Source: Solirubrobacterales bacterium
GTDB taxonomy: Bacteria > Actinomycetota > Thermoleophilia > Solirubrobacterales > JBBDJG01
Assembly: GCA_038330145.1 (NCBI GenBank)
Contig: JBBQNR010000001.1
Location: 10,500 to 74,499, forward strand
DNA length: 64,000 bases
Reading direction: 5' to 3'
Shown here: piece by piece, positions 3,144 through 64,000 of the stretch
How positions within the stretch are numbered: the first letter of the stretch is position 1
Layout of the letters: each line of letters starts with the position of its first letter
Notes under the pieces: model-generated
Database searches by the model: none
What the model was told of the DNA's origin: nothing
The model's input: the letters and a program-made list of their open reading frames with translations, nothing else
Made by a program: the position numbers and the translations under genes

Positions 3144-3913
3144 CCGCGCTGCGCGGAGACCTGACCATGACCTGGGCGTTGATGCGGCGCGGCGTCAACG
3201 AACTGCTGCGCGTGCCGGCGGCGGGCATCCCGGGCATCCTCGCGCCGACGATCTTCATGGTCGGCCTGACGGCCGTCTTCGGCAGCCTGACGCTGCTGCC
3301 GGGCTTCACGACAGACGACTACATCACCTTCATCCTCCCGGTCGGGTTCCTGCAGGGCGCCGGCTTCACCGGGGCCGCCACCGGGGTGAACCTGGCGCGC
3401 GACATCGAGCTGGGCTGGTTCGACCGCCTGCTGGCGTCGCCCGCTCCGCGCGGCGTGCTGCTTGCCGGAACGGTCCTGTCGGCCAGCCTGCGCACCGTGC
3501 TGCCGTTCTCGCTGCTGATGATCGTCGGACTTTCGCTGGGAGCCGAGTTCCCCGGCGTCGACGGCCTGCTGCTTGCGCTCGCGATCGCAGCGGTGTTCGC
3601 GGCGGTGGCCGCTTCCTACGCGGTCACGCTCGCGCTCAAGTTCCGCACCCAGGCTGCGGCGCCGCTGATGCAGGCGGGCGTCTTCATGGCCGTCCTCTTC
3701 ACCAGCGCGTACGCGCCCGAGCCGCTGCTGACCGGCTGGCTCAAGGACGTGGCCGCGGTCAACCCGGTGACGCTCATCCTCGATGCCGTCCGCCAGGGGT
3801 TCGTGGGCGGCGTCACCTGGTCGGACACCTGGCCGGGGCTGCTGGCCCTGGCCGGTCTCGCGGCGGTAGTGGTCGCGCTGGCGATGCGCGGCCTGAGTCG
3901 CACCTCCGACTAG
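3140..3913 (+). CDS. ABC-2 type transporter permease (second subunit)
   Basis: ATGA overlap at 3140-3143 with the preceding permease. Polytopic hydrophobic protein. A GTG at 3110 is an alternative start. Confidence 0.8.
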   Translation: MTALRGDLTMTWALMRRGVNELLRVPAAGIPGILAPTIFMVGLTAVFGSLTLLPGFTTDDYITFILPVGFLQGAGFTGAATGVNLARDIELGWFDRLLASPAPRGVLLAGTVLSASLRTVLPFSLLMIVGLSLGAEFPGVDGLLLALAIAAVFAAVAASYAVTLALKFRTQAAAPLMQAGVFMAVLFTSAYAPEPLLTGWLKDVAAVNPVTLILDAVRQGFVGGVTWSDTWPGLLALAGLAAVVVALAMRGLSRTSD

Positions 3914-3983
3914 CGCACCCAGAGGTTGCCACGGCCGGGAAACGGTCCCCGAACGGCGCCGGGGCGGGTCTAACATTGGCTCG

Positions 3984-4502
3984 ATGCCTCAGCTCGCCGA
4001 CACGCTCAACATCGACAACCTCAACCTGCGCTCCGGCGCGGGCACGCGCTTCGACGCCGAGCTGCGGATCGAGCCGCTGCAGGCGGCAGGGCAGAAATAC
4101 CACGTGGTGGGCTGCAGGGTCGACGCTCGCGTCGACGTCTCTCGCACGAGCTCCGGGTACGCCTTCAAGCTTCGCTTTGAAGCCGAGCTGGAGGGACCGT
4201 GCATGCGCTGCCTGGCCGATGCGCGTCCCCTGATCGAGGTCGAGGCTCGCGAGGTCGAGCAGCCGGGAGAGGCGGAGGACTTCCACAGCCCCTACTTCGA
4301 GGACGGCGTGCTGGAGCTGGCAGGCTGGGCGCGTGACGCGCTGGTCCTGGCGCTGCCACCGCGGCTGCTCTGCCGCGACGACTGCCGCGGCCTCTGCTCG
4401 GTCTGCGGCGTCAGCCTCAACGATGCCGACCCCACCGAGCACAGGCACGAGAGCGATATCGACCCGCGCTGGGCCAAGCTGGGCGAGCTGAAGCTGGAAT
4501 AA
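3984..4502 (+). CDS. yceD: YceD/DUF177 family protein (23S rRNA accumulation protein)
   Basis: C-terminal CRDDCRGLCSVCGVSLN...DPRWAKLGELK matches the DUF177 cysteine motif. It sits in the classic position immediately upstream of rpmF. Confidence 0.85.
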   Translation: MPQLADTLNIDNLNLRSGAGTRFDAELRIEPLQAAGQKYHVVGCRVDARVDVSRTSSGYAFKLRFEAELEGPCMRCLADARPLIEVEAREVEQPGEAEDFHSPYFEDGVLELAGWARDALVLALPPRLLCRDDCRGLCSVCGVSLNDADPTEHRHESDIDPRWAKLGELKLE

Positions 4503-4771: not shown

Positions 4772-5844
4772 ACGCGCTCGGCGCCGACCTCGGAGTCGCA
4801 GAGGTTGTGTCGGGGGCGGCCGCCGCCGCTCGCGCCGGTACGCGCTGCGTCGTCTACGGCCCTCTGGCAGAGATGGAGCAGGCTCTCGGCGCAGAGGCCC
4901 CCGGCTCGCTGGAGCTCGTCGACGCCCCGTTTACGATCGCCAACGACGACGAGCCGGCTCGGGCGGCGCGCTCGATGACCGAGGCGTCGGTCGTGCAGGC
5001 CGCCAAGTCGGTCGCCGAAGCCCGCGCCGACGCGCTGGTAAGCGCGGGGTCCACGGGCGCCGCGCTGGCGGCATCTCTTCTGCACGTCAAGCGCATGCCG
5101 GGAGTCTTTCGGCCCGCGATCGCCGTGCCGCTGCCGCTGCCGGGCGGCACCGTGGTCCTGCTCGACGTCGGCGCCAACGTCGAGGTGCGGGCCGAGCACC
5201 TGATCCAGTTCGCCCACATGGGCGCGGCCTTCAGCGAGCGGGTGCTCGGCGTGCCGCGGCCCCGGGTCGGGCTGCTGTCGGTGGGGGAGGAGCCGGGCAA
5301 GGGCACCGCGACGGTCGTGGAAGCGCACCAGCGGCTGGCGCAGGGCGAGCTCGAGTTCGCGGGCAACGTCGAGGGCGACGACGTTCCGCAGGCGGCCGTG
5401 GACGTGGTCGTCACGGACGGCTTCACGGGCAACGTGGCGCTGAAGCTGATGGAGGGGACGTCGCGCTCGCTGACCGGCGCCATCTCGCAGGCCGCCCGCT
5501 CTGGCCCGCTGTCGGCGATCGGGGGGCTGCTGCTGAAGCCGAAGCTGTCCAAGCTGCGCGACCGCATCGACCCAGAGCGCGTGGGCGGCGCCTACCTGCT
5601 GGGGCTGCGGAGACTGGTGGTGATCTGCCACGGCCGCTCCAGCCGGCGCGCGATCCAGAATGCGATCGAGCTGGCCGCGCGCGGCGTCGAGCAGCAGGTG
5701 GTGGACCGCACCGCCGAAGGGCTGTCGCGGTCCGGCGCGCTGAGAGGTTCGAACGAACAACCCTTCGCCGAGGCCTCACCGGATGGGCCGGCGGAGACGC
5801 CATCCGCGTCCGCGACCGCTGATAGCTTGGAAGTTCAGCAATGA
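4690..5844 (+). CDS. plsX: Phosphate acyltransferase PlsX
   Basis: VAVDALGADLG... matches the PlsX 'AVDAMGGD' N-terminus, with FTGNVALK downstream. The only canonical start that keeps this motif is ATG 4690, which lies 82 nt inside rpmF. Confidence 0.85.
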   Translation: MRLLRQASGRDAGRFLPRGGTVATVAVDALGADLGVAEVVSGAAAAARAGTRCVVYGPLAEMEQALGAEAPGSLELVDAPFTIANDDEPARAARSMTEASVVQAAKSVAEARADALVSAGSTGAALAASLLHVKRMPGVFRPAIAVPLPLPGGTVVLLDVGANVEVRAEHLIQFAHMGAAFSERVLGVPRPRVGLLSVGEEPGKGTATVVEAHQRLAQGELEFAGNVEGDDVPQAAVDVVVTDGFTGNVALKLMEGTSRSLTGAISQAARSGPLSAIGGLLLKPKLSKLRDRIDPERVGGAYLLGLRRLVVICHGRSSRRAIQNAIELAARGVEQQVVDRTAEGLSRSGALRGSNEQPFAEASPDGPAETPSASATADSLEVQQ

Positions 5845-19442: not shown

Positions 19443-20057
19443 GTGTTCGACCGGGCATTGGAGTCGCGCTACGTCGCCGGTGCCGACGAGGCCGGTCGCG
19501 GCAGCCTGGCCGGCCCGCTGGTCGCGGCCGCTGTGCTGTTCGACTACCAGCGGCTGACCACCAAGGAGGTTCGCGCACTGACGCGCCTCGACGACTCGAA
19601 GGTGCACGACGCCGAGGCCAGGGAGGAGCTCTATCCGCTCGTGGTGAGGACAGCGACCAAGGTCGCGGTGACCTCGCGTTGCGCGCGCGGCATCGACGAG
19701 CGCGGACTGCACGTGACCAACCTGGCCGCACTGCGCGACTGCCTTGCCCAGGTCGCCGTGCCGGGCACCGTCTGCCTCGTGGACGGCTTCCGCGTCGCCG
19801 ACCTCGATCACCGGCAGCAGGCCGTGATCGACGGAGACGCGCGCAGTGCCGCGATCGCGGCCGCGTCTGTGATCGCGAAGGTGACGCGGGACCGCTATAT
19901 GATGCGTGCCGCGGAGGAGCTGCCCGGCTGGCACTTCCACACAAACGTCGGCTACTCGACCCCGGAGCATCGCGACGCCATCCAGGAGCGCGGCATCAGC
20001 TCGCTGCACCGCCGCTCGTTTCAATCGGTCGCATACCAGCAGCTCGCGATCGAGTAA
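19443..20057 (+). CDS. rnhB: Ribonuclease HII
   Basis: GADEAGRGSLAGPLVAAAV catalytic motif, DDSK, and GYSTPEH. GTG 19443 is the first start after the lepB stop. The track ORF begins at 19284, inside lepB. Confidence 0.85.
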   Translation: MFDRALESRYVAGADEAGRGSLAGPLVAAAVLFDYQRLTTKEVRALTRLDDSKVHDAEAREELYPLVVRTATKVAVTSRCARGIDERGLHVTNLAALRDCLAQVAVPGTVCLVDGFRVADLDHRQQAVIDGDARSAAIAAASVIAKVTRDRYMMRAAEELPGWHFHTNVGYSTPEHRDAIQERGISSLHRRSFQSVAYQQLAIE

Positions 20058-20176
20058 ACGGCGGTCTCCGGAACCGCCATGCGGTGTCCTCGGTCGAGCC
20101 TGTACTGACCACGACAGGCTCTCTCTCCCTGTGTCCTTGCCTGGCGGCCCCGGTAGCCGCGCCGTTTCCTGGCGAC
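20056..20176. repeat. Copy A of an unclassified structured intergenic element (second copy at 36760-36875)
   Basis: About 80% identical to 36760-36875 over ~120 nt. It contains the hairpins ggcggt-ctccgg-aaccgcc and gagcctgt-actgaccacg-acaggctc. It fills the entire gap between the rnhB stop and the yraN stop. Confidence 0.7.
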
Positions 20177-20184
20177 TACTGTGG

Positions 20185-20571
20185 CTAGAACGCCGACTCG
20201 ATGTGCTCCATCCCCAGCAACCTGCCACCGGGTGACAGGGTCACGCCGATGGCATCGAAGCGCACGGTCCTGAAGGGGACGGTTCCCGAGCGCTCGCCCA
20301 TCCAGGCCCGTGCCAGCCTTCTGATCTTGGTCCGCTTCGCGTGCCTGACCGACTCGAGCGGATATGCCGGTCCTCTGCCACCAGGCCGTCGGGCGACCAG
20401 CGTCTTGACCTCACAGAAGACGAGCGTTTCCCCGCGGCGGGCGATGACGTCCAGCTCGCCTTCGCGCGTGCGGTAGTTGCGCTCGACGATCCGGTAGCCG
20501 CCGGCCTCGAGCCGCTCGGCGGCCAGGCGCTCGCCGATGCGGCCGATGGTGGTGCGGCGGTCTGGGGACAT
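20185..20571 (-). CDS. yraN: YraN family (UPF0102) endonuclease-like protein
   Basis: GERLAAERLEAGGYRIVERNYRTREGELDVIARRGETLVFCEVKT matches the family core. Confidence 0.85.
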   Translation of the reverse strand: MSPDRRTTIGRIGERLAAERLEAGGYRIVERNYRTREGELDVIARRGETLVFCEVKTLVARRPGGRGPAYPLESVRHAKRTKIRRLARAWMGERSGTVPFRTVRFDAIGVTLSPGGRLLGMEHIESAF

Positions 20572-20714
20572 GCGGCGAAGTTACGCATCCGCACGTCGCG
20601 GTTGTTGCAAGCAATGTCACTGATGTGTGCGGCAGCCGGCGGTTTCACAGACGCGTGCGTCGTTCGTTGCAGCGCTCGTGAGTTAGCTGAGCCGTCGCCG
20701 CCTACGGTCCGGCG

Positions 20715-22259
20715 ATGCTTGCTCGTGCGGCAACCTTCGCGCTGATCGGTGTCGACGCCGTCGACGTCACCGTCGAGGCGGACATCCATCCCGGCCTGCC
20801 CGCGTTCACGATCGTCGGCCTGCCGGACGCGGCCGTTCAGGAGTCGCGCGAGCGCGTGCGGGCAGCGTTGGTCAACAGTGAGTTCGAGTTCCCGTTGCGG
20901 CGGATAACGGTCAACCTCGCGCCGGCCGATTTCAGAAAGGCGGGTCCCGGATTCGACCTCGCGCTGGCGGGCGCCGTGCTGGCCGCCAGCGGTCAGGTGT
21001 CAAGCGATCCGCTGGACCGCTACGCCCTCTGCGGGGAACTCGGCCTCGACGGCTCGATCCGGCCGGTGCGCGGAGCGCTGGCGTTCGCCGACCGGGCGCA
21101 TCGGTCCGGGCGTGAGGGTCTGGTGATCGCGGCCGCCAATGCGGCCGAGGCCTCGCTGGTCGACGGCCTCGAGGTCGTGGGCGTGGAGACCGTGCGCCAG
21201 CTGGCAGACTTTCTCGCCGGCGGCTGGCGGCCGCCAAGAATCCACGTCGACGCCAAAGCGATGCTCGAGGCGGGGCATGAGCAGCAAGTCGATCTAGCTG
21301 AGGTCCGTGGGCACCACTCGCTCAAGCGTGCGCTGGAGGTGGCGGCGGCCGGGGGTCATCACATGCTGATGATCGGGCCGCCCGGCAGCGGCAAGTCGAT
21401 GCTCTCGCGCCGCATGCCCACGATCCTGCCTCCGCCGACGTTCGACGAGGCGCTGGAGGCGACGCGAGTGCACAGCGTCGCGGGCCTGCTCGGCGGTGAG
21501 GCGCTGATCGCCAGGCGACCGTTCAGGGCGCCGCATCACTCGATCTCGAGCGCAGGCCTTGTCGGCGGCGGCGTGCCTCCGTCGCCCGGTGAGGCGAGTC
21601 TCGCCCACAACGGCGTCCTGTTCCTCGACGAGCTGGCGGAGTTTCCGCGGCCCGCGCTCGAGGCGCTCAGGCAGCCGCTCGAGCAGGGGTCAATCTCGCT
21701 TACGCGAGCTCAGCGGACCGTCACCTTTCCGATGCGGTTCTCCCTACTCGCCGCCACCAATCCCTGTCCGTGTGGCAACTTCGGCGCCGCGAGGAGGGAA
21801 TGCAGTTGCCATCCGAGCGCAATTCACCGCTACCTCTCCAAGCTCAGTGCGGCGCTGGTCGACCGCATCGACGTCATGGTGCGGGTCGACCCGCCGTCGC
21901 GCCAGGAGCTGATGTCCGATCAGGCGGCGCCCTCCTCGGCCGAGGTGCGCGCCCGGGTCGTCGCGGGCCGCGCCCGCCAGAGCGAGCGCCTGGCCGGAAG
22001 CCGCGCTCGCTGCAACGCCGACATGACCACCGCGCAGGCGCGCCGTCACTGCCGTCTACCACGCGCTGCGATACGGGCGCTCGAGCTTGCACTCGACCGT
22101 GCTCTTCTGACCCCACGTGGCCACGGCCGCGTCTTGCGTGTCGCGCGCACGCTGGCGGATCTCGACGGGCGGGAGGGGATCGAGCGCAAAGATGTGACGG
22201 AGGCGATCGGATACAGGGATTCGCGCGTAGTGCATGCGAGCGAATGGATCGCCGCCTGA
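20715..22259 (+). CDS. comM: Mg-chelatase-like ATPase ComM/YifB
   Basis: N-terminal Lon-like domain followed by Walker A GPPGSGKSM and NGVLFLDELAEF. The C-terminal part of the protein is also present. Confidence 0.9.
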   Translation: MLARAATFALIGVDAVDVTVEADIHPGLPAFTIVGLPDAAVQESRERVRAALVNSEFEFPLRRITVNLAPADFRKAGPGFDLALAGAVLAASGQVSSDPLDRYALCGELGLDGSIRPVRGALAFADRAHRSGREGLVIAAANAAEASLVDGLEVVGVETVRQLADFLAGGWRPPRIHVDAKAMLEAGHEQQVDLAEVRGHHSLKRALEVAAAGGHHMLMIGPPGSGKSMLSRRMPTILPPPTFDEALEATRVHSVAGLLGGEALIARRPFRAPHHSISSAGLVGGGVPPSPGEASLAHNGVLFLDELAEFPRPALEALRQPLEQGSISLTRAQRTVTFPMRFSLLAATNPCPCGNFGAARRECSCHPSAIHRYLSKLSAALVDRIDVMVRVDPPSRQELMSDQAAPSSAEVRARVVAGRARQSERLAGSRARCNADMTTAQARRHCRLPRAAIRALELALDRALLTPRGHGRVLRVARTLADLDGREGIERKDVTEAIGYRDSRVVHASEWIAA

Positions 22260-36521: not shown

Positions 36522-36734
36522 ATGATCTACTGCGTAATACCGAAAGCGCTCTCCAGCGAGCTGTTCGACAAGCTGCGGGAGTACTACAGCAACGATCCCA
36601 ACGTGGAGGTCATCATCGACCGCCGCGAGGCGAGCCGGCGCAGCCGCGGCAGCACGGGTGGGGGCAAGCGCGAGCTGCGCGATCGCCGTCGCCGCCGGGC
36701 GCAGGGCAGCTTCCTCAAGATCGACGCCGCCTAG
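36522..36734 (+). CDS. Small hypothetical protein (70 aa) with an Arg-rich tail
   Basis: MIYCVIPKALSSELFDKLREYYSNDPNVEVIIDRRE followed by an R/G-rich tail. High GC3 after an AT-rich leader. Confidence 0.5.
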   Translation: MIYCVIPKALSSELFDKLREYYSNDPNVEVIIDRREASRRSRGSTGGGKRELRDRRRRRAQGSFLKIDAA

Positions 36735-36897
36735 TGGCCCTTCTCAAAACGTTTCACCGGGAACGGCGGCCTCCGGGGCCGCCATGCGGCGTCCTCGGTC
36801 GACCCTGCACTGACCAGTACAGGGTCTCCCTGCGTCCTTGCCTGGCGGCCCCGGGCGCCTCGCCGTTCCCCGGCGAACGTTCCGAGAAGGCCCACTA
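36730..36897. repeat. Copy B of the structured element, extended by ~38-bp terminal inverted repeats
   Basis: The core 36760-36875 is homologous to 20056-20176. The outer arms ctagtggcccttctcaaaacgtttcaccgggaacggcg / cgccgttccccggcgaacgttccgagaaggcccactag pair almost end to end. The element fills the gap between the small ORF and the RNase HI gene. Confidence 0.7.
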
Positions 36898-36904
36898 GCC
36901 CCGC

Positions 36905-43883: not shown

Positions 43884-43957
43884 AGCGGATGATGGGACTC
43901 GAACCCACGACCTTCTGCATGGCAAGCAGACGCTCTAGCCAACTGAGCTACATCCGC
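43884..43957 (-). tRNA. tRNA-Gly (anticodon GCC)
   Basis: The reverse complement GCGGATGTAGCTCAGTTGGCTAGAGCGTCTGCTTGCCATGCAGAAGGTCGTGGGTTCGAGTCCCATCATCCGCT folds as a cloverleaf. Anticodon loop TTGCCAT, U73 discriminator, and no encoded CCA. Confidence 0.9.
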
Positions 43958-44095: not shown

Positions 44096-44167
44096 GGCGA
44101 CGTGGCGGAGTGGCTTACGCGGGGGCCTGCAAAGCCCTTTACACCGGTTCGATTCCGGTCGTCGCCT
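44096..44167 (+). tRNA. tRNA-Cys (anticodon GCA)
   Basis: GGCGACGTGGCGGAGTGGCTTACGCGGGGGCCTGCAAAGCCCTTTACACCGGTTCGATTCCGGTCGTCGCCT has acceptor GGCGACG/CGTCGCC, anticodon loop CTGCAAA and U73. Confidence 0.9.
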
Positions 44168-47501: not shown

Positions 47502-47574
47502 CGGGCGCATAGCTCAGTTGGGAGAGCGCCAGCTCGACAAGCTGGAGGTCACTGGTTCGAGCCCAGTTGCGCCC
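47502..47574 (+). tRNA. tRNA-Val (anticodon GAC), with C at position 33
   Basis: GGGCGCATAGCTCAGTTGGGAGAGCGCCAGCTCGACAAGCTGGAGGTCACTGGTTCGAGCCCAGTTGCGCCCA has all four stems perfect. The anticodon loop is TCGACAA. Confidence 0.85.
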
Positions 47575-47691
47575 ACCTTCGCCCAGTCGGCCCGGGCGCG
47601 CTACAGCGGCGCCGAGCGGCGACCGATAGAGGCTCTGTTGAGCGGTGCCGCGACGACTCATGCTGAGCCGGGCAGGGCCGAGGAACAGCGC

Positions 47692-56209: not shown

Positions 56210-56310
56210 CTGCCTCCCGATAAAGGCAAACCCGTCGTAAGGCGGGGACGCAAAGCCAACGGGGCCCCCGCGAAGCATTTGCCAAGGGGTCGGCCGGGTT
56301 GCCGAAGGAA
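56210..56310 (+). promoter_or_regulatory. c-di-GMP-I (GEMM-I) riboswitch candidate
   Basis: aaaGGCAAACC-cgtc-GUAA-ggcg-GGGACGCAAAGCCaacgggg...GCCGGGUUGCCGAAGG parallels V. cholerae Vc2 GGGCAAACC-cauuc-GAAA-gagug-GGACGCAAAGCCuccgg...GCGGGGUUACCGAUGG. The GNRA-capped first hairpin is included. It lies 40 nt upstream of ATG 56350. Confidence 0.7.
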
Positions 56311-56349: not shown

Positions 56350-57879
56350 ATGCACCACACCCACCGTGAGCACACGCTCACGAGGAGCGCCTTTGGCGGG
56401 CTTGCCGCCCTGGCCGGCATCGCGGTGCTCCTCGTCGCCCTGGCCGCATCTCTGTCGATGCCGGCAGTGGCCGGAGCGAAGGACCGCTCCTTCACCGCAG
56501 TCAAGGTGAAGCACGGAGTGGCGACTTTCAGGTTGAAGCACGTATCGCCGCGGCAGATCCGCTCGGCGCACGTCCTCGGGCCCAAGGGCACGAAGCGGCT
56601 GTCGCTGAAGCGCATCCGTCGCGCTGCCCGGCGCGGCTACCTGCGCACCAGGATCTCGCGTCACGGCAAGCACAGGCTGCACGTGAGGTCCAAGCGGGCC
56701 CGTCGCTCTGCTTGGTCGAGGCGACGTTCCAAGAAGACCGACCCGACACCGCCGCCGACGACCACACCGCCACCGACCAACACGCCACCACCGACGAACA
56801 CACCACCGCCGACCAACACGCCACCACCGACGACCACACCACCGACCGACCCGATTCTGGTGATCGAGACGCCCGATCCTCCGACTCCCCCGGAGACCGG
56901 TGCCTGCACGACTGACCTGAATCAGTTCGCTCCCGGCCAATCGCCGGCGGCATGCTGGCGGGCGTACGCGGACACGAGCCCGTTCAACCGGCTGATACCG
57001 GCCGGCGCGCGTCTCACGTCCGATTCGTCGTCGCTTGTCGCGAATCTGCGTTCGGAGGGAAGCGGGCCCAAGAGCGGCAGGGCCAACATCCCCGAGGGCG
57101 ACGACTACCACAAGAACATCTACTGGGCCCGCAGCACGGACCCGGAGTACACCGTCATCGGTGGCTCGACGACCGCACCCTACGACGTCGACGGCCGCAA
57201 GGTGCGCATGCCCGACGGAGCACGCCAGACTGCTGGCGGCGACGCCCATCTGGGCATCGTCTACAACGGCGAGGAGTGGTGCTTTTACCAGGCGTCGGTC
57301 AACCCGACGGCAAGGACGATCACCGTCAACTCCGGGCGACGGATCTCGCTCGCGGGCGACGGCCGCAACGCAGCCGCAACCTCGGCACGCTTCGGCTGTC
57401 TCGCGGGCCGCATCCGCTACCCGGAGTTCGCGGCCGGGCAGATCAACCACGCGATCTTCATGAGCGCGTCGACGACCGGCTCGGGCTTCGTCTACCCGGC
57501 ACTGAAGTCGGACGGCCCCAAGGGCGCCGGCTATCCACCGATGGGAACGCGCTTCCAGCTCGATCCGTCCTACGCGACGGATGCATGGCTGGCAGGGTTC
57601 CCGGCGTGGAAGCGGGCGATCCTGCGCGCGCTGCGTGACTACGGTGGATACCTCGGTGACACCACCAGCGGCGGCTGGACGGCGATGCCGTTCGAGTCGG
57701 AGGTCGGGTACTACTCGTTCGGCCTACCACGGCCGTTCGCAGCATATGCGAGCTCGCGTGACTCGACCGATGGCGACATCTCCCTGTCGGGAGGCACGTA
57801 CTACTTCAACCTGGCGAGCGGCGTGGACTGGTCCAGGCTGCGGGTCCTGGACCCGTGCGTCGCGCAGGGCACCTGCTAG
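56350..57879 (+). CDS. Secreted protein, paralogue 1: signal peptide, K/R-rich region, Pro-Thr linker, and unknown ~320-aa C-terminal domain
   Basis: ATG 56350 follows AAGGAAGGGG. Signal peptide LAALAGIAVLLVALAASLSMPAVAGA. The C-terminal domain shares CWR.Y.D.SPFN, GGD.H, GDG.N.AAT.ARFG.LAGRIR, INHA, YPPMGTRFQL, RDYGGYLGDTT and DPCV...TC with the genes at 58256 and 63197. Confidence 0.8.
   Translation: MHHTHREHTLTRSAFGGLAALAGIAVLLVALAASLSMPAVAGAKDRSFTAVKVKHGVATFRLKHVSPRQIRSAHVLGPKGTKRLSLKRIRRAARRGYLRTRISRHGKHRLHVRSKRARRSAWSRRRSKKTDPTPPPTTTPPPTNTPPPTNTPPPTNTPPPTTTPPTDPILVIETPDPPTPPETGACTTDLNQFAPGQSPAACWRAYADTSPFNRLIPAGARLTSDSSSLVANLRSEGSGPKSGRANIPEGDDYHKNIYWARSTDPEYTVIGGSTTAPYDVDGRKVRMPDGARQTAGGDAHLGIVYNGEEWCFYQASVNPTARTITVNSGRRISLAGDGRNAAATSARFGCLAGRIRYPEFAAGQINHAIFMSASTTGSGFVYPALKSDGPKGAGYPPMGTRFQLDPSYATDAWLAGFPAWKRAILRALRDYGGYLGDTTSGGWTAMPFESEVGYYSFGLPRPFAAYASSRDSTDGDISLSGGTYYFNLASGVDWSRLRVLDPCVAQGTC
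56746..56850 (+). repeat. Coding tandem repeat, ~5.5 copies of an 18-bp unit encoding (PPPTNT)n
   Basis: ccgccgacgaccacaccg / ccaccgaccaacacgcca / ccaccgacgaacacacca / ccgccgaccaacacgcca / ccaccgacgaccacacca. Confidence 0.85.
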
Positions 57880-58255: not shown

Positions 58256-60016
58256 ATGATGCAGGGAAGTTCACGCAGGGTGTTGAAGCCGCTGGTCGCG
58301 CTGTTGGTGCTGGTCTTGGTGGCGCTGGCCGGCGCGCCCGCGATGGCGGTGGAGGAATCGCCGCCCGTGTTGCGCCAGTTCGGCATGGAGACCGGCGACT
58401 TCTCGCGCTTCGATAAGACCGCCGCGACGGCCGGGTCGGTGACCATCGATGGCAACCGAACCTACGGCGGCGAGTACTCCGCCCACGCCCATTACGAGGG
58501 ACTCAACCGCCCCGGCTTCGCGCTGACCGCGTTCGACGTCGAGTGGGCCGGCGGTGACGACGTCTGGTACGGCGCCGGCTTCTACCTGCCCCTCACGTTC
58601 CCGGCGTCACAGCACGCGGACGTGATGCTCGTCGGCTGGGACAACCGCCCGACTTACCAGTCGGGGGCCGACTACAGCGGCGTCGTGATTGCGGCGTCCG
58701 ACCACAAGGCGTATCTGGTCAGAGGCAAGGCCGATGGGAGCCAGCGCGAGGTACTGGCTGGACCCATCGACGTTCCCCTCGGCCGCTGGTTCTTCACCGA
58801 GGTCCACCAGAGGCTCGATGGCGCCAAGGGCGTGAACGAGCTGTTCGTGGACGGCGAGCTGGAGAGCAAGTCCGACAGGCCCAACACTTACGGCCGCGCG
58901 GCCGATCAGGTGCGCTACGGGATGCTCGGCCTTCAGCAGCTGACACCGCTCGACCTCTGGTTCGACCGCGCCGTCGCGCGCAAAAGCGGCAGCGACCGCA
59001 CCTGCAACTGGGGGGTCACCGCCTCGCCCTGGATGACCGAGTCCGGCAGCTACATCGCCGCCGCCAAGCACGAGGGCGGCTACCCGGTCGGATGCTGGCG
59101 CCCGTACTCCGACGCCAGTCCCTTCAATCAGCGCATCCCCGAGGACGCCCGGGTCGACTCGGGCTCAGCCCAGATGGTGAAGCGGCTCACCGACGCCGGC
59201 ATGCCCACCGATCGTCGCGCCGGCATCGCCGATACCTCGGAGGACTTCTACAAGCCGACCTACTGGGCCCGCCCCACCGATCCGTTGGTACGCCTCAACG
59301 CGACCGGCAGCTCCCCGCAGATCGACGGCGATCTGATCCGGGTGCCGGTCGGGGCCCGCCCGGCCGGCGGCAGCGACCGTCACATGACGATCGTGCAACC
59401 GGACGGCTGGGAGTACGACCTCTGGCACGCGGAGCCGGTCTCCGGCGGAGTGCTGAGCTACAACGCCGGCCGCAAGATCCCCATCGTCGGCGACGGCCTC
59501 AACTCGGCCGCGACGGCCTCGCGCTTCGGCAACCTCGCCGGGCGGATCAGAGCGCAGGAGATGGAGGTGGGCCAGATCAACCACGCCTTCTTCATGGCCG
59601 CCTCGACGACCGCCACCACGGCCGTCTACCCGGCCGCGAAGAGCGATGGGAACAGGGACCCAGCCGCGGGCTATCCGCCGATGGGGACGCGCTTCCAGCT
59701 CCAGATCAGCGACGCGGAGCTGTCACGCTTCCCCTACTGGAAGCAGGCGGTTCTGCGCGCGTTCCGCGACTACGGCGGGTATCTCGGCGACACCACCGGG
59801 TCGCCCTGGACCTTCGCGGCGCTCGAGTCGGGCTCGTCGTACACGAGCTTCGGCCTCGAGGACCGCATGGTCACGTTCGCCCGCCAGGCGATGCAGCAAG
59901 GCCAGGGCGGAATCGACTACAGCGGTGGCATCTATTACTTCGACATCGCCTCCGGGGTCGACTGGGCGAATCGCCTGCGCGTGATCGACCCCTGCGTGAC
60001 CGAGCGCACCTGTTAG
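58256..60016 (+). CDS. Secreted protein, paralogue 2: signal peptide, ConA-like/polysaccharide-lyase-like N-domain, and the same unknown C-terminal domain
   Basis: ATG 58256 follows GGGAGG. Signal peptide LVALLVLVLVALAGAPAMA. The N-domain pattern is WYGAGFYLP...GRWFFTEVHQRL...NELFVDGEL...VRYGMLGL. The C-domain carries the motifs listed for paralogue 1. Confidence 0.8.
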   Translation: MMQGSSRRVLKPLVALLVLVLVALAGAPAMAVEESPPVLRQFGMETGDFSRFDKTAATAGSVTIDGNRTYGGEYSAHAHYEGLNRPGFALTAFDVEWAGGDDVWYGAGFYLPLTFPASQHADVMLVGWDNRPTYQSGADYSGVVIAASDHKAYLVRGKADGSQREVLAGPIDVPLGRWFFTEVHQRLDGAKGVNELFVDGELESKSDRPNTYGRAADQVRYGMLGLQQLTPLDLWFDRAVARKSGSDRTCNWGVTASPWMTESGSYIAAAKHEGGYPVGCWRPYSDASPFNQRIPEDARVDSGSAQMVKRLTDAGMPTDRRAGIADTSEDFYKPTYWARPTDPLVRLNATGSSPQIDGDLIRVPVGARPAGGSDRHMTIVQPDGWEYDLWHAEPVSGGVLSYNAGRKIPIVGDGLNSAATASRFGNLAGRIRAQEMEVGQINHAFFMAASTTATTAVYPAAKSDGNRDPAAGYPPMGTRFQLQISDAELSRFPYWKQAVLRAFRDYGGYLGDTTGSPWTFAALESGSSYTSFGLEDRMVTFARQAMQQGQGGIDYSGGIYYFDIASGVDWANRLRVIDPCVTERTC

Positions 60017-63196: not shown

Positions 63197-64000
63197 ATGC
63201 TTCTGCTCACCGTCGCGCTCGTAACAGCGATCGCGTCTGCGGCAGTGATGCCGCCCGCGACCGCGCAGGCGGCGCCGCAGGACCCCTGCGCGCCGGCCTA
63301 CGGGTCCTTCACTGCCGGCAACTGGCCGCCCGCCTGCTGGCGGCCGTACTCGGACGCCAGCCCGTTCAACGTCCGGGTGCCACCGAACCCCACGCTCAAT
63401 CCGCGCTCGGCCCAGATCGTCCAGCGCCTGCTCGGCTTCGGGCCCCCGAACCCTGAGCGAGCCGGCCATGCGGACGGCGGCAACGACTTCGACAAGCCCG
63501 TCTACTTCGCCCAGCCCGGTGACCCCGTAGTGACTCTGAACGGCTCCGGTACCTCCCCTATCGACGGCGAGAGGATCCACGTGCCGGCGGGGGCCCGGCC
63601 CGCGAGCGGCGGCGACGCCCACATGACGATCGTGGAGTCCAACGGCTGGGAGTACGACCTCTACCAGGCCCACGAGCCCTCGGCGGGAGTGCTGAGCTAC
63701 AGCTCCGGGCGCAAGATCCGTATCGACGGCGATGGGCTCAACTCTGCCGCGACCGCCTCGCGCTTCGGCAACCTGGCCGGCAAGGTGACGGAGCCCGAGC
63801 TGCGGGCCGGAGTCATCAACCACGCGCTCGTGATGGCGATCAACTGCACGTCGGGCAGCTTCGTCTGGCCGGCGATGAAGACCGATTCCAAGTGCTCCAA
63901 CCCCACCGACGCGCCGCCGATGGGAGCTCATTTCTGGCTCGCCATGAGCGACGGCCAGATCAACGCACTGCCGGTCCCGGCGTGGAAGAAGACGATCCTG
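63197..64000 (+). CDS. Secreted protein, paralogue 3 (partial, runs off the window): signal peptide directly followed by the unknown C-terminal domain
   Basis: This ORF is not in the track because it is open at the window end. My translation from ATG 63197 is MLLLTVALVTAIASAAVMPPATAQAAPQDPCAPAYGSFTAGNWPPACWRPYSDASPFNVRVP...GGDAHMTIVESNGWEYDLYQA...GDGLNSAATASRFGNLAGKV...INHALVMA...PPMGAHFWL. Confidence 0.8.
   Translation, partial: MLLLTVALVTAIASAAVMPPATAQAAPQDPCAPAYGSFTAGNWPPACWRPYSDASPFNVRVPPNPTLNPRSAQIVQRLLGFGPPNPERAGHADGGNDFDKPVYFAQPGDPVVTLNGSGTSPIDGERIHVPAGARPASGGDAHMTIVESNGWEYDLYQAHEPSAGVLSYSSGRKIRIDGDGLNSAATASRFGNLAGKVTEPELRAGVINHALVMAINCTSGSFVWPAMKTDSKCSNPTDAPPMGAHFWLAMSDGQINALPVPAWKKTIL

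Follow-up and report, generated by a model that had tools for sequence, protein, structure and literature searches.

What are the two similar intergenic stretches, copy A and copy B, that each abut a gene of the RNase H type in the DNA analysed here, 64 kb of a Solirubrobacterales genome on contig JBBQNR010000001.1 (hereafter 'the window')? A preliminary description took them for a structured RNA element tied to RNase H genes, and offered as a fallback a repeat of the REP (repetitive extragenic palindromic) or MITE (miniature inverted-repeat transposable element) kind. It is the fallback that the evidence favours: copies A and B probably belong to a large family of dispersed repeats, non-coding and palindromic, of the ERIC/Correia/REPIN kind. 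The similarity itself holds: blastn aligns 20057–20175 with 36762–36876 at 84.0% identity over 119 nt (E 1.2e-32), and MAFFT likewise gives 84% for these stretches. Neither blastn nor nhmmer found a third copy in the window (G+C content 68.9%), and a covariance-model search of it with filters off returned copy B at 94.3 bits, copy A at 66.6 bits (E = 4e-11) and the next best match at 12.6 bits. The neighbouring genes are as first described. Copy A lies between the stop codon TAA (20055–20057) of rnhB, which encodes an RNase_HII protein (PF01351) and ends at 20057, and the convergent gene yraN (UPF0102, 20185–20571, minus strand), the stop codon of which is at 20185–20187. Copy B holds in its 5' end the TAG stop codon (36732–36734) of an upstream open reading frame (ORF) of 70 codons, and its 3' end is 6 nt ahead of the TTG start codon (36905) of an RNase HI/RVT_3 gene.

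Relatives were collected by scanning species-representative genomes with a 19-base core pattern and metagenomes with a gapped two-block pattern; both scans demanded 19–21 core bases, and both family membership and core conservation are ascertained through these core-based patterns. The window's own genome is outside the genome collection, its only identical match being a 1.9-kb Logan contig. Among the species-representative genomes there are four true relatives: two metagenome-assembled genomes (MAGs) of Solirubrobacterales, with the element between rplD and rplW in one and between tpiA and gpmI in the other, one Gaiellaceae MAG and one Actinomycetota MAG; the remaining eight core-pattern matches are chance 20-mers. 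The metagenome scan yielded at least 120 contigs with the pattern, mostly from soil, and all but one of the metagenome matches listed are real elements. The 109 full-length copies are all distinct, each pair differing at more than 8 of ~147 nt, and fall into 56 arm clusters; element lengths range from 112 to 170 nt, and the elements are non-coding. Eight further copies in 753 kb of loci, together with the two in the window, correspond to roughly one copy per 30–70 kb, a density from which the number of copies in a genome can only be extrapolated. Nothing similar turned up in plasmid and phage collections; viral contigs gave only two matches. As the preliminary description had it, the element corresponds to no known RNA family: the Rfam 15 gathering scan of the window returned only three tRNAs and one c-di-GMP-I-GGC riboswitch, and E-value scans of copy A and ten loci gave chance-level matches only. 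The literature on repeats or structured RNA in Thermoleophilia and Solirubrobacterales yielded no description of it. The family is apparently undescribed and hosted by high-GC, Thermoleophilia-like actinobacteria of soil.

With this collection in hand, the proposed tie to RNase H genes can be judged. Using gene calls from a simple caller based on G+C content at third codon positions (GC3) that was made for this analysis, we assigned 158 neighbouring proteins from more than 100 loci to Pfam: they gave 111 and 114 families (more than 200 in all), housekeeping ones with at most three members each, and no family is enriched. RNase_HII accounts for 2 of the 82 neighbours on its side of the element, one in the window itself and one in locus L089. 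A cis-regulatory or otherwise RNase H-linked structured RNA would agree with both window copies touching an RNase H-type gene and with the L089 element also following rnhB; however, copy A is 3' of rnhB and copy B 5' of rnhA, the arms of the L089 element place it in another subfamily, and the neighbours in general show no such preference, all of which makes such a link extremely improbable. A gene-specific riboswitch or leader for RNase H genes was likewise rejected, as the element holds no consistent position beside one gene family. The preliminary description had itself named dozens of copies without gene association as the outcome that speaks against the link, and with at least 120 metagenome contigs the search came out that way. 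The RNase H neighbours of copies A and B are a coincidence. Few of the loci are orthologous to one another, which means that many different sites are occupied, and what we are dealing with is almost certainly a dispersed repeat family that has no specific gene association.

The anatomy of the element is described here in the order of the window minus strand. A 5' arm is followed by the first core strand, GGCAAGGACGCAGGGAG; then come an apical stem-loop with 8–11 pairs, the second core strand, GCGACCGAGGACGC(N)GC, and a 3' arm. The two core strands, near-constant, flank the variable apical stem; arms and apical stem vary in sequence yet stay complementary, the arm-to-arm alignment containing 3954 Watson-Crick pairs. 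Arm lengths are sharp, 58–62 and ~53 nt beyond the core, which gives a long form of ~165 nt; a short form of ~110–120 nt is devoid of the outer 30 nt on each side. Copy A is short and copy B is long. Each copy folds as one long hairpin rather than as the three local hairpins originally drawn, and the first of these (ggcggT..Accgcc) is better read as a segment of the 5' arm that is paired to the 3' arm: in L004 and other relatives the arms still pair over the long range, while local self-complementarity is absent from this region. Two further amendments are that the palindrome of copy B spans 36731–36898 and had been drawn too short, and that the better-folding strand is the minus strand in both copies, opposite to the orientation first given.

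The claim that helices are preserved by compensatory change has fared better. The paired substitutions between the two copies are present both in the apical hairpin (gaGcctg/caggCtc versus gaCcctg/caggGtc) and in the closing stem (Aaacggcg/cgccgttT versus Gaacggcg/cgccgttC). In an alignment of six sequences the core strands are constant and the helices variable, 17 of 41 pairs being compensatory, and across the 109 distinct relatives both partners change in 10 of the 11 apical pairs and in 4 of the 6 pairs beside the core. The score for covariation, 0.352, compares with 0.121 for shuffled alignments, none of 500 shuffles reaching it, and with at most 0.102 for slid controls. The core behaves differently. 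Five internal pairs predicted within it are invariant and therefore uninformative on structure, and positions beside the bases that the scan patterns force are at least 90% conserved too. On the minus strand the core is purine-rich; its two blocks do not form an inverted repeat but have the word AGGACGC in common in direct orientation, and lie opposite one another as internal loops. In the predicted fold, the minus-strand core would form three tandem G.A/A.G modules with one or two G-C pairs between them, GGAC facing GGAC. Tandem GA pairs are typical protein-binding or tertiary motifs of RNA.

Which strand is under constraint can be read in two ways that give the same answer. By folding, the minus strand is the more stable in 91 of 106 elements, and it is so in copy A (−60.1 versus −56.9 kcal/mol for plus) and copy B (−90.8 versus −81.1 kcal/mol; z-scores −7.9 and −5.8). 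By arm mismatches, counted without any folding program, plus-strand A.C (that is, minus-strand G.U) exceeds G.T by 428 to 222, a bias that is seen by element (72 versus 15) and by arm cluster (37 versus 10). It is present within operons in which the plus strand is the mRNA sense (92 A.C versus 44 G.T; 19 versus 3 elements) and where a gene on the minus strand reads into the element (44:12); being found in every gene context, it is a property of the element and not of local transcription. The strand under structural constraint is the window minus strand. The asymmetry is concentrated in variants that have spread: states common to at least two copies at different loci are G.U in 57 cases and A.C in 5, while singleton states within clusters are nearly symmetric (G.U 33, A.C 23; Fisher p 3e-5). 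We conclude that selection for minus-strand pairing acted in those lineages from which new copies arose, and changes after insertion look close to neutral. Two other sources of the asymmetry were considered and rejected: mutational bias, since a deaminated coding or lagging-template strand would give an asymmetry of opposite sign and the asymmetry observed is independent of gene context, and selection in place for a weaker mRNA hairpin, since elements in minus sense carry the same 44:12 bias.

The wobble asymmetry also bears on whether the covariation might be a by-product of DNA symmetry. Palindromic DNA can homogenise its arms without selection on RNA, as is established for quasipalindromes, and template switching or gene conversion could in this manner have kept the element symmetric by arm-to-arm correction. 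Whole stem segments do differ between orthologous copies, as such correction would have it; nevertheless, it predicts perfect Watson-Crick symmetry and not a 2:1 wobble asymmetry concentrated in shared variants, and it leaves unexplained why a core that is not palindromic exceeds the arms in conservation, so that we regard it as very improbable. An orthologous pair is found in L023 (2553–2601) and L069 (7296–7344), where a flanking protein is 81% identical. Between these two, several compensatory changes fall simultaneously in one stem segment, CCTGGGG/CCCCAGG being swapped between the arms, a hint that other copies served as donors in conversion and that the changes did not arise by mutation step by step.

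A better-folding minus strand that tolerates G.U pairs could also be expected of free-standing small RNA genes producing a hairpin RNA of ~165 nt with GA-rich internal loops that bind a specific protein. Two further observations are in keeping with this: the minus-strand core would, by its sequence, read as stacked tandem G.A motifs, and the gene 3' of the minus-strand form is convergent in 63 of 82 cases. We nonetheless consider such genes improbable, as stop and start codons abut both ends and leave no room for a promoter, no sigma-70-like promoter or U-tract terminator was found for either window copy, nothing is conserved outside the hairpin, and within operons antisense transcription from inside essential genes would be required. 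An intrinsic terminator was rejected as well, there being no terminator-like site at either copy and no T run after the hairpins; so was a small peptide read from a conserved ATG (ATGCGGCGTCC...), the ORF length and frame of which differ between relatives, and so was a self-cleaving ribozyme or a K-turn or hammerhead core, for which neither comparison by eye with the consensus features nor the Rfam class models gave a match.

How, then, do the elements sit among genes? The intergenic sites are unrelated to one another, and most of them adjoin the 3' end of a gene. Convergent contexts outnumber divergent ones by 25 to 7, and co-directional contexts favour the plus (pyrimidine-core) sense by 38:14; more distant genes share the same regional orientation bias. 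The tetranucleotide YTAR, itself palindromic, peaks at −62/−61 and +51/+52 from the core, TA/YTAR being strongly position-specific at both ends, against an overall CTAG frequency of 0.55 per kb; the hairpin of copy B starts at CTAG and ends with CACTAG. Stop codons cluster a few bases from the 5' end of the element, and at about 20 operon junctions the next start codon abuts its 3' end, a GGAG-like tract lying ahead of it inside the terminal arm, 6–9 nt before the start codon. Junctions with abutting codons include rplC|rplD, rplD|rplW, rplW|rplB, the one upstream of rpsC, rpsK|rpsD, sucC|sucD, tpiA|gpmI and rnhB|yraN. Since the arms are complementary and the 5' terminal arm carries a matching CTCC-like tract, one basal stem holds both the stop codon and the Shine-Dalgarno tract. 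Within the S10 ribosomal-protein operon four intercistronic junctions, all different, are occupied in four organisms (L092, L002, L096 and L066), and one junction of the alpha operon, rpsK|rpsD, in L031; by our own rough estimate the S10 and alpha junctions are occupied about eight-fold above an even spread of the ~120 sampled sites over intergenic regions. In L121 (4802–5120) a tRNA gene (4925–4995) has an element on either side, the two differing in arm subfamily and all three sharing one orientation. An enrichment of TAG stop codons beside elements was looked for and is not significant.

This placement is what makes a host-domesticated cis-acting module worth weighing: an RNA within the mRNA, for most operons in plus sense, that selection rather than mobility would maintain at every site, either as an intercistronic hairpin that joins stop and start codons and masks the Shine-Dalgarno tract until the upstream ribosome arrives, or as a signal for processing or stability to which a host protein binds. 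In essential operons with high expression the element fits exactly into the space from stop to start codon, and GGAG stands in its 3' terminal arm 6–9 nt ahead of the start codon. This agrees with a cis-acting module, as do the 38:14 orientation bias, the retention at orthologous sites with compensatory change and the conservation of the core across at least two orders. On the other hand, the constrained strand is antisense to the mRNA in these very operons, singleton changes in place are nearly symmetric, the four S10 junctions in four organisms look like independent insertions and not inheritance, and some elements have convergent genes or a tRNA gene as neighbours. On balance we think domestication unlikely.

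That the dispersed family has spread in the past is supported by the many unrelated sites, the subfamilies common to several contigs, the occurrence of several arm subfamilies on one contig (L063, L121), the four S10 junctions in four organisms, and truncated or arm-only remnants (L113; window 3913–3985). A mechanism can be outlined in conditional terms. The family would be a non-autonomous element spreading, in the past or at present, through a minus-strand intermediate of single-stranded DNA or RNA, the hairpin of which would present the core to a trans-acting, probably dimeric protein; spread through such a single-stranded intermediate recognised at the core is a tentative proposal. Insertions would survive where they do little harm: the 5' end of the element contains a stop codon, and its 3' end meets the start codon of the next gene. 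Its terminal stem would pair the CTCC-like with the GGAG-like Shine-Dalgarno tract, a ribosome terminating upstream could open it, and the opened stem would keep the downstream gene translationally coupled, a plausible route to tolerated insertions. That the ends preserve translational coupling is a possibility, though we would stop short of calling it probable.

Several observations weigh against this reading of the family as a mobile repeat. The Pfam assignments of the 158 neighbours and the ~750 kb of loci contain no transposase, no reverse transcriptase and no autonomous parent; the loci hold no pairs of terminal inverted repeats (TIRs) 300–5000 bp apart, and a tblastn search of them for Y1 transposases found none, though as a weak test. 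No clean empty site was found in the loci, the sole candidate, window 3913–3985, being a remnant. TAGTG...CACTA is present at both ends in only 16 of 114 copies, the ends being heterogeneous between subfamilies, and it is the centre that is conserved and not the ends, unlike in a classical MITE; the constancy of the core is in part a product of construction, the scans having required 19–21 of its bases. Some sites look old and stable: one orthologous site has retained its element in L023 as well as L069, the stem having changed in a compensatory manner, and an element follows rnhB in the window as it does in L089, where the proteins are 50% identical. Stop-codon usage beside the elements does not differ from background (p 0.24).

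Within the window, the parts of the two copies are collected in Table 1.

Table 1. Element copies in the window and their parts, in window coordinates
Feature	Position	Strand	Evidence
Copy A, short form, 112 nt, one imperfect hairpin	20056–20167	-	blastn, folding, covariance model
Copy A core strand; plus reads ATGCGGTGTCCTCGGTCGA, minus reads TCGACCGAGGACACCGCAT	20079–20097	-	
Copy A apical stem-loop; sequence varies in the family, pairing kept	20098–20119	-	folding, covariation
Copy A second core strand; plus reads TCTCTCTCCCTGTGTCCTTGCCTGG, minus contains GGCAAGGACACAGGGAG	20120–20144	-	
Copy B, long form, 168-nt hairpin, self-palindrome E 2.7e-22	36731–36898	-	
Copy B core strand; plus reads ATGCGGCGTCCTCGGTCGA	36784–36802	-	
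Copy B apical stem-loop	36803–36824	-	folding, covariation
Copy B second core strand; plus reads TCTCCCTGCGTCCTTGCCTGG	36825–36845	-	
Copy B outer 3' arm; purine-rich, Shine-Dalgarno-like GAGAAGG and terminal CACTAG	36868–36898	+	
Probable arm-only remnant of a third element, core lost; begins CTAGCGCACCC, contains GGCCGGGAAACGG	3913–3985	.	similarity by eye, unscored

The second core strand of copy A carries a 4-nt insertion compared with copy B, and the outer 3' arm of copy B pairs with its outer 5' arm at 36731–36760 (CTAGTGGCCCTTCTC...). The site orthologous to the probable remnant holds a full element in L009 and L095, upstream of the orthologue of the window gene at 3984–4499; in L095 (100–235) the 3' arm of the element (GCTTGCCTCTCGCCGCGCTAAGGGCCG...) occurs as three tandem repeats after a complete element. 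In L089 rnhB, element and yraN are all on one strand and the yraN ATG abuts the end of the element; set against this order, the convergent yraN of the window (20185–20571, compared with L089 2–148) suggests a local inversion in the window lineage. Beyond the window yraN (20571–20715) there was no sign of a leftover of the repeat. The 70-aa ORF upstream of copy B (36522–36734, plus strand; MIYCVIPKALSSELFDKLREYY...) has an Arg-rich tail, high GC3 and no Pfam match. Elsewhere in the window, the c-di-GMP-I-GGC riboswitch lies at 56216–56307 on the plus strand (67.5 bits versus a gathering score of 59), and the gene downstream of it contains 18-nt tandem repeats at 56746–56850 (ACACCGCCGCCGACGACC-like), probably encoding proline and threonine, as well as three paralogous sequence blocks (57327–57507, 59461–59641 and 63700–63880). 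The three tRNA genes are at 43884–43957 (minus), 44096–44167 (plus) and 47503–47575 (plus), the first two being divergent.

What would such a family mean for its hosts? Thermoleophilia (Solirubrobacterales, Gaiellales) are abundant, poorly studied soil actinobacteria, for the repeat content of which we found no description, and with at least 120 contigs the family supplies a sequence tag for the clade in metagenomes. It also carries a caution for searches for RNA motifs, in that a dispersed repeat can give strong covariation beside two related genes. Finally, it offers a tractable case for questions of the ERIC/Correia/REPIN type, namely what moves such repeats and how long hairpins are tolerated in essential operons, both of which are testable because of the strand-specific constraint, the GA-rich conserved core and the stop/Shine-Dalgarno/start ends. 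A bolder proposal, which we hold to be rather unlikely, is that a system as yet undescribed, strand-specific and serving mobilisation or RNA binding, uses the elements as its substrate: a dimeric protein would act on the tandem G.A stack of a ~165-nt minus-strand hairpin, of single-stranded DNA or RNA, the ends of which (stop codon, anti-Shine-Dalgarno tract, Shine-Dalgarno tract and start-codon context) would have evolved to fit coupled essential operons such as S10. If true, the element would be an intercistronic insertion of a 'stealth' kind that brings a coupling device along and has been conserved in more than one order of Thermoleophilia.

Among known systems, integron attC sites can be set aside. 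Copy A ends in AGTAAAC ... GTTTCCT; however, most relatives are without AAC/GTT ends and the neighbours are housekeeping genes. The attC sites are defined by R''/R' boxes (RYYYAAC ... GTTRRRY), cassette arrays and a folded bottom strand, and only the use of the bottom strand resembles the element. The MIRUs (mycobacterial interspersed repetitive units; Supply et al., 1997) are reportedly actinobacterial intergenic repeats inside operons; their ends overlap the stop codon before them and the start codon after them, which would preserve translational coupling, and in host, location and ends they would resemble the element. They are direct tandem repeats of 40–100 bp with small ORFs, unlike single long hairpins. 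For ERIC, compensatory evolution of the stems is said to have been described by Wilson and Sharp in 2006.

In more general terms, the element resembles a bacterial MITE in its shortness (below ~200–400 bp), its lack of a transposase gene and its many dispersed copies and, as such elements do, forms a long stem-loop in a single strand (PMC3184786). As to TIRs, every copy has complementary arms, yet the termini differ between subfamilies. For a duplication of the target site around the element, the position-specific TA/YTAR at both ends would be the candidate, palindromic though it is in itself. MITEs and ERIC are hairpin-forming repeats found at 3' ends with TA flanks (PMC3184786), and the element resembles ERIC/IRU (enterobacterial repetitive intergenic consensus) in several respects: both are imperfect palindromes of a little more than 100 nt in transcribed intergenic regions and at 3' ends, in either orientation, with conservation across genera, TA at both termini, a long RNA stem-loop and no known transposase (PMC3184786). 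In contrast to ERIC, with which it has no sequence relationship and which belongs to another host phylum, the element has a non-palindromic core, purine-rich on the minus strand, around a variable apical stem, as well as strand asymmetry and ends on stop and start codons. Correia elements of Neisseria (CREE/NEMIS) are likewise MITE-like, 100–160 bp long, with inverted arms, TA flanks and short and long forms; they have a central functional site (for IHF), are co-transcribed with their neighbours and have no known transposase (PMC3184786), and by analogy a functional site in the centre and co-transcription with neighbours may also be ascribed to the element. Correia ends, however, are conserved 26-bp TIRs around an AT-rich centre, whereas here the ends are heterogeneous and the centre is conserved.

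REPINs offer the closest parallel in architecture. They consist of two conserved blocks with a covarying hairpin spacer between them and are mobilised in trans through single-stranded DNA, a trans-acting dimeric enzyme having been proposed (PMC3116915); the element shares with them two highly conserved blocks, a spacer constrained only to form a hairpin, common compensatory changes and extragenic dispersal (PMC3116915). The differences are that REPIN blocks are inverted copies of short palindromic REP sequences, while the blocks of the element share a direct AGGACGC word, and that the element has long extra arms outside its blocks. RAYT tyrosine transposases, the genes of which are flanked by REP sequences, mobilise REPINs; no RAYT or Y1 gene was seen in the loci, again by a weak test. 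By sequence and by defining features the element is not a member of ERIC, Correia or REPIN. By analogy it may be placed closest to REPINs in its architecture and in the strand-specific, single-stranded recognition that this would imply, and what sets it apart is its combination of a non-palindromic GA-rich core, long extra arms, and ends built from a stop codon, a Shine-Dalgarno tract and a start codon.

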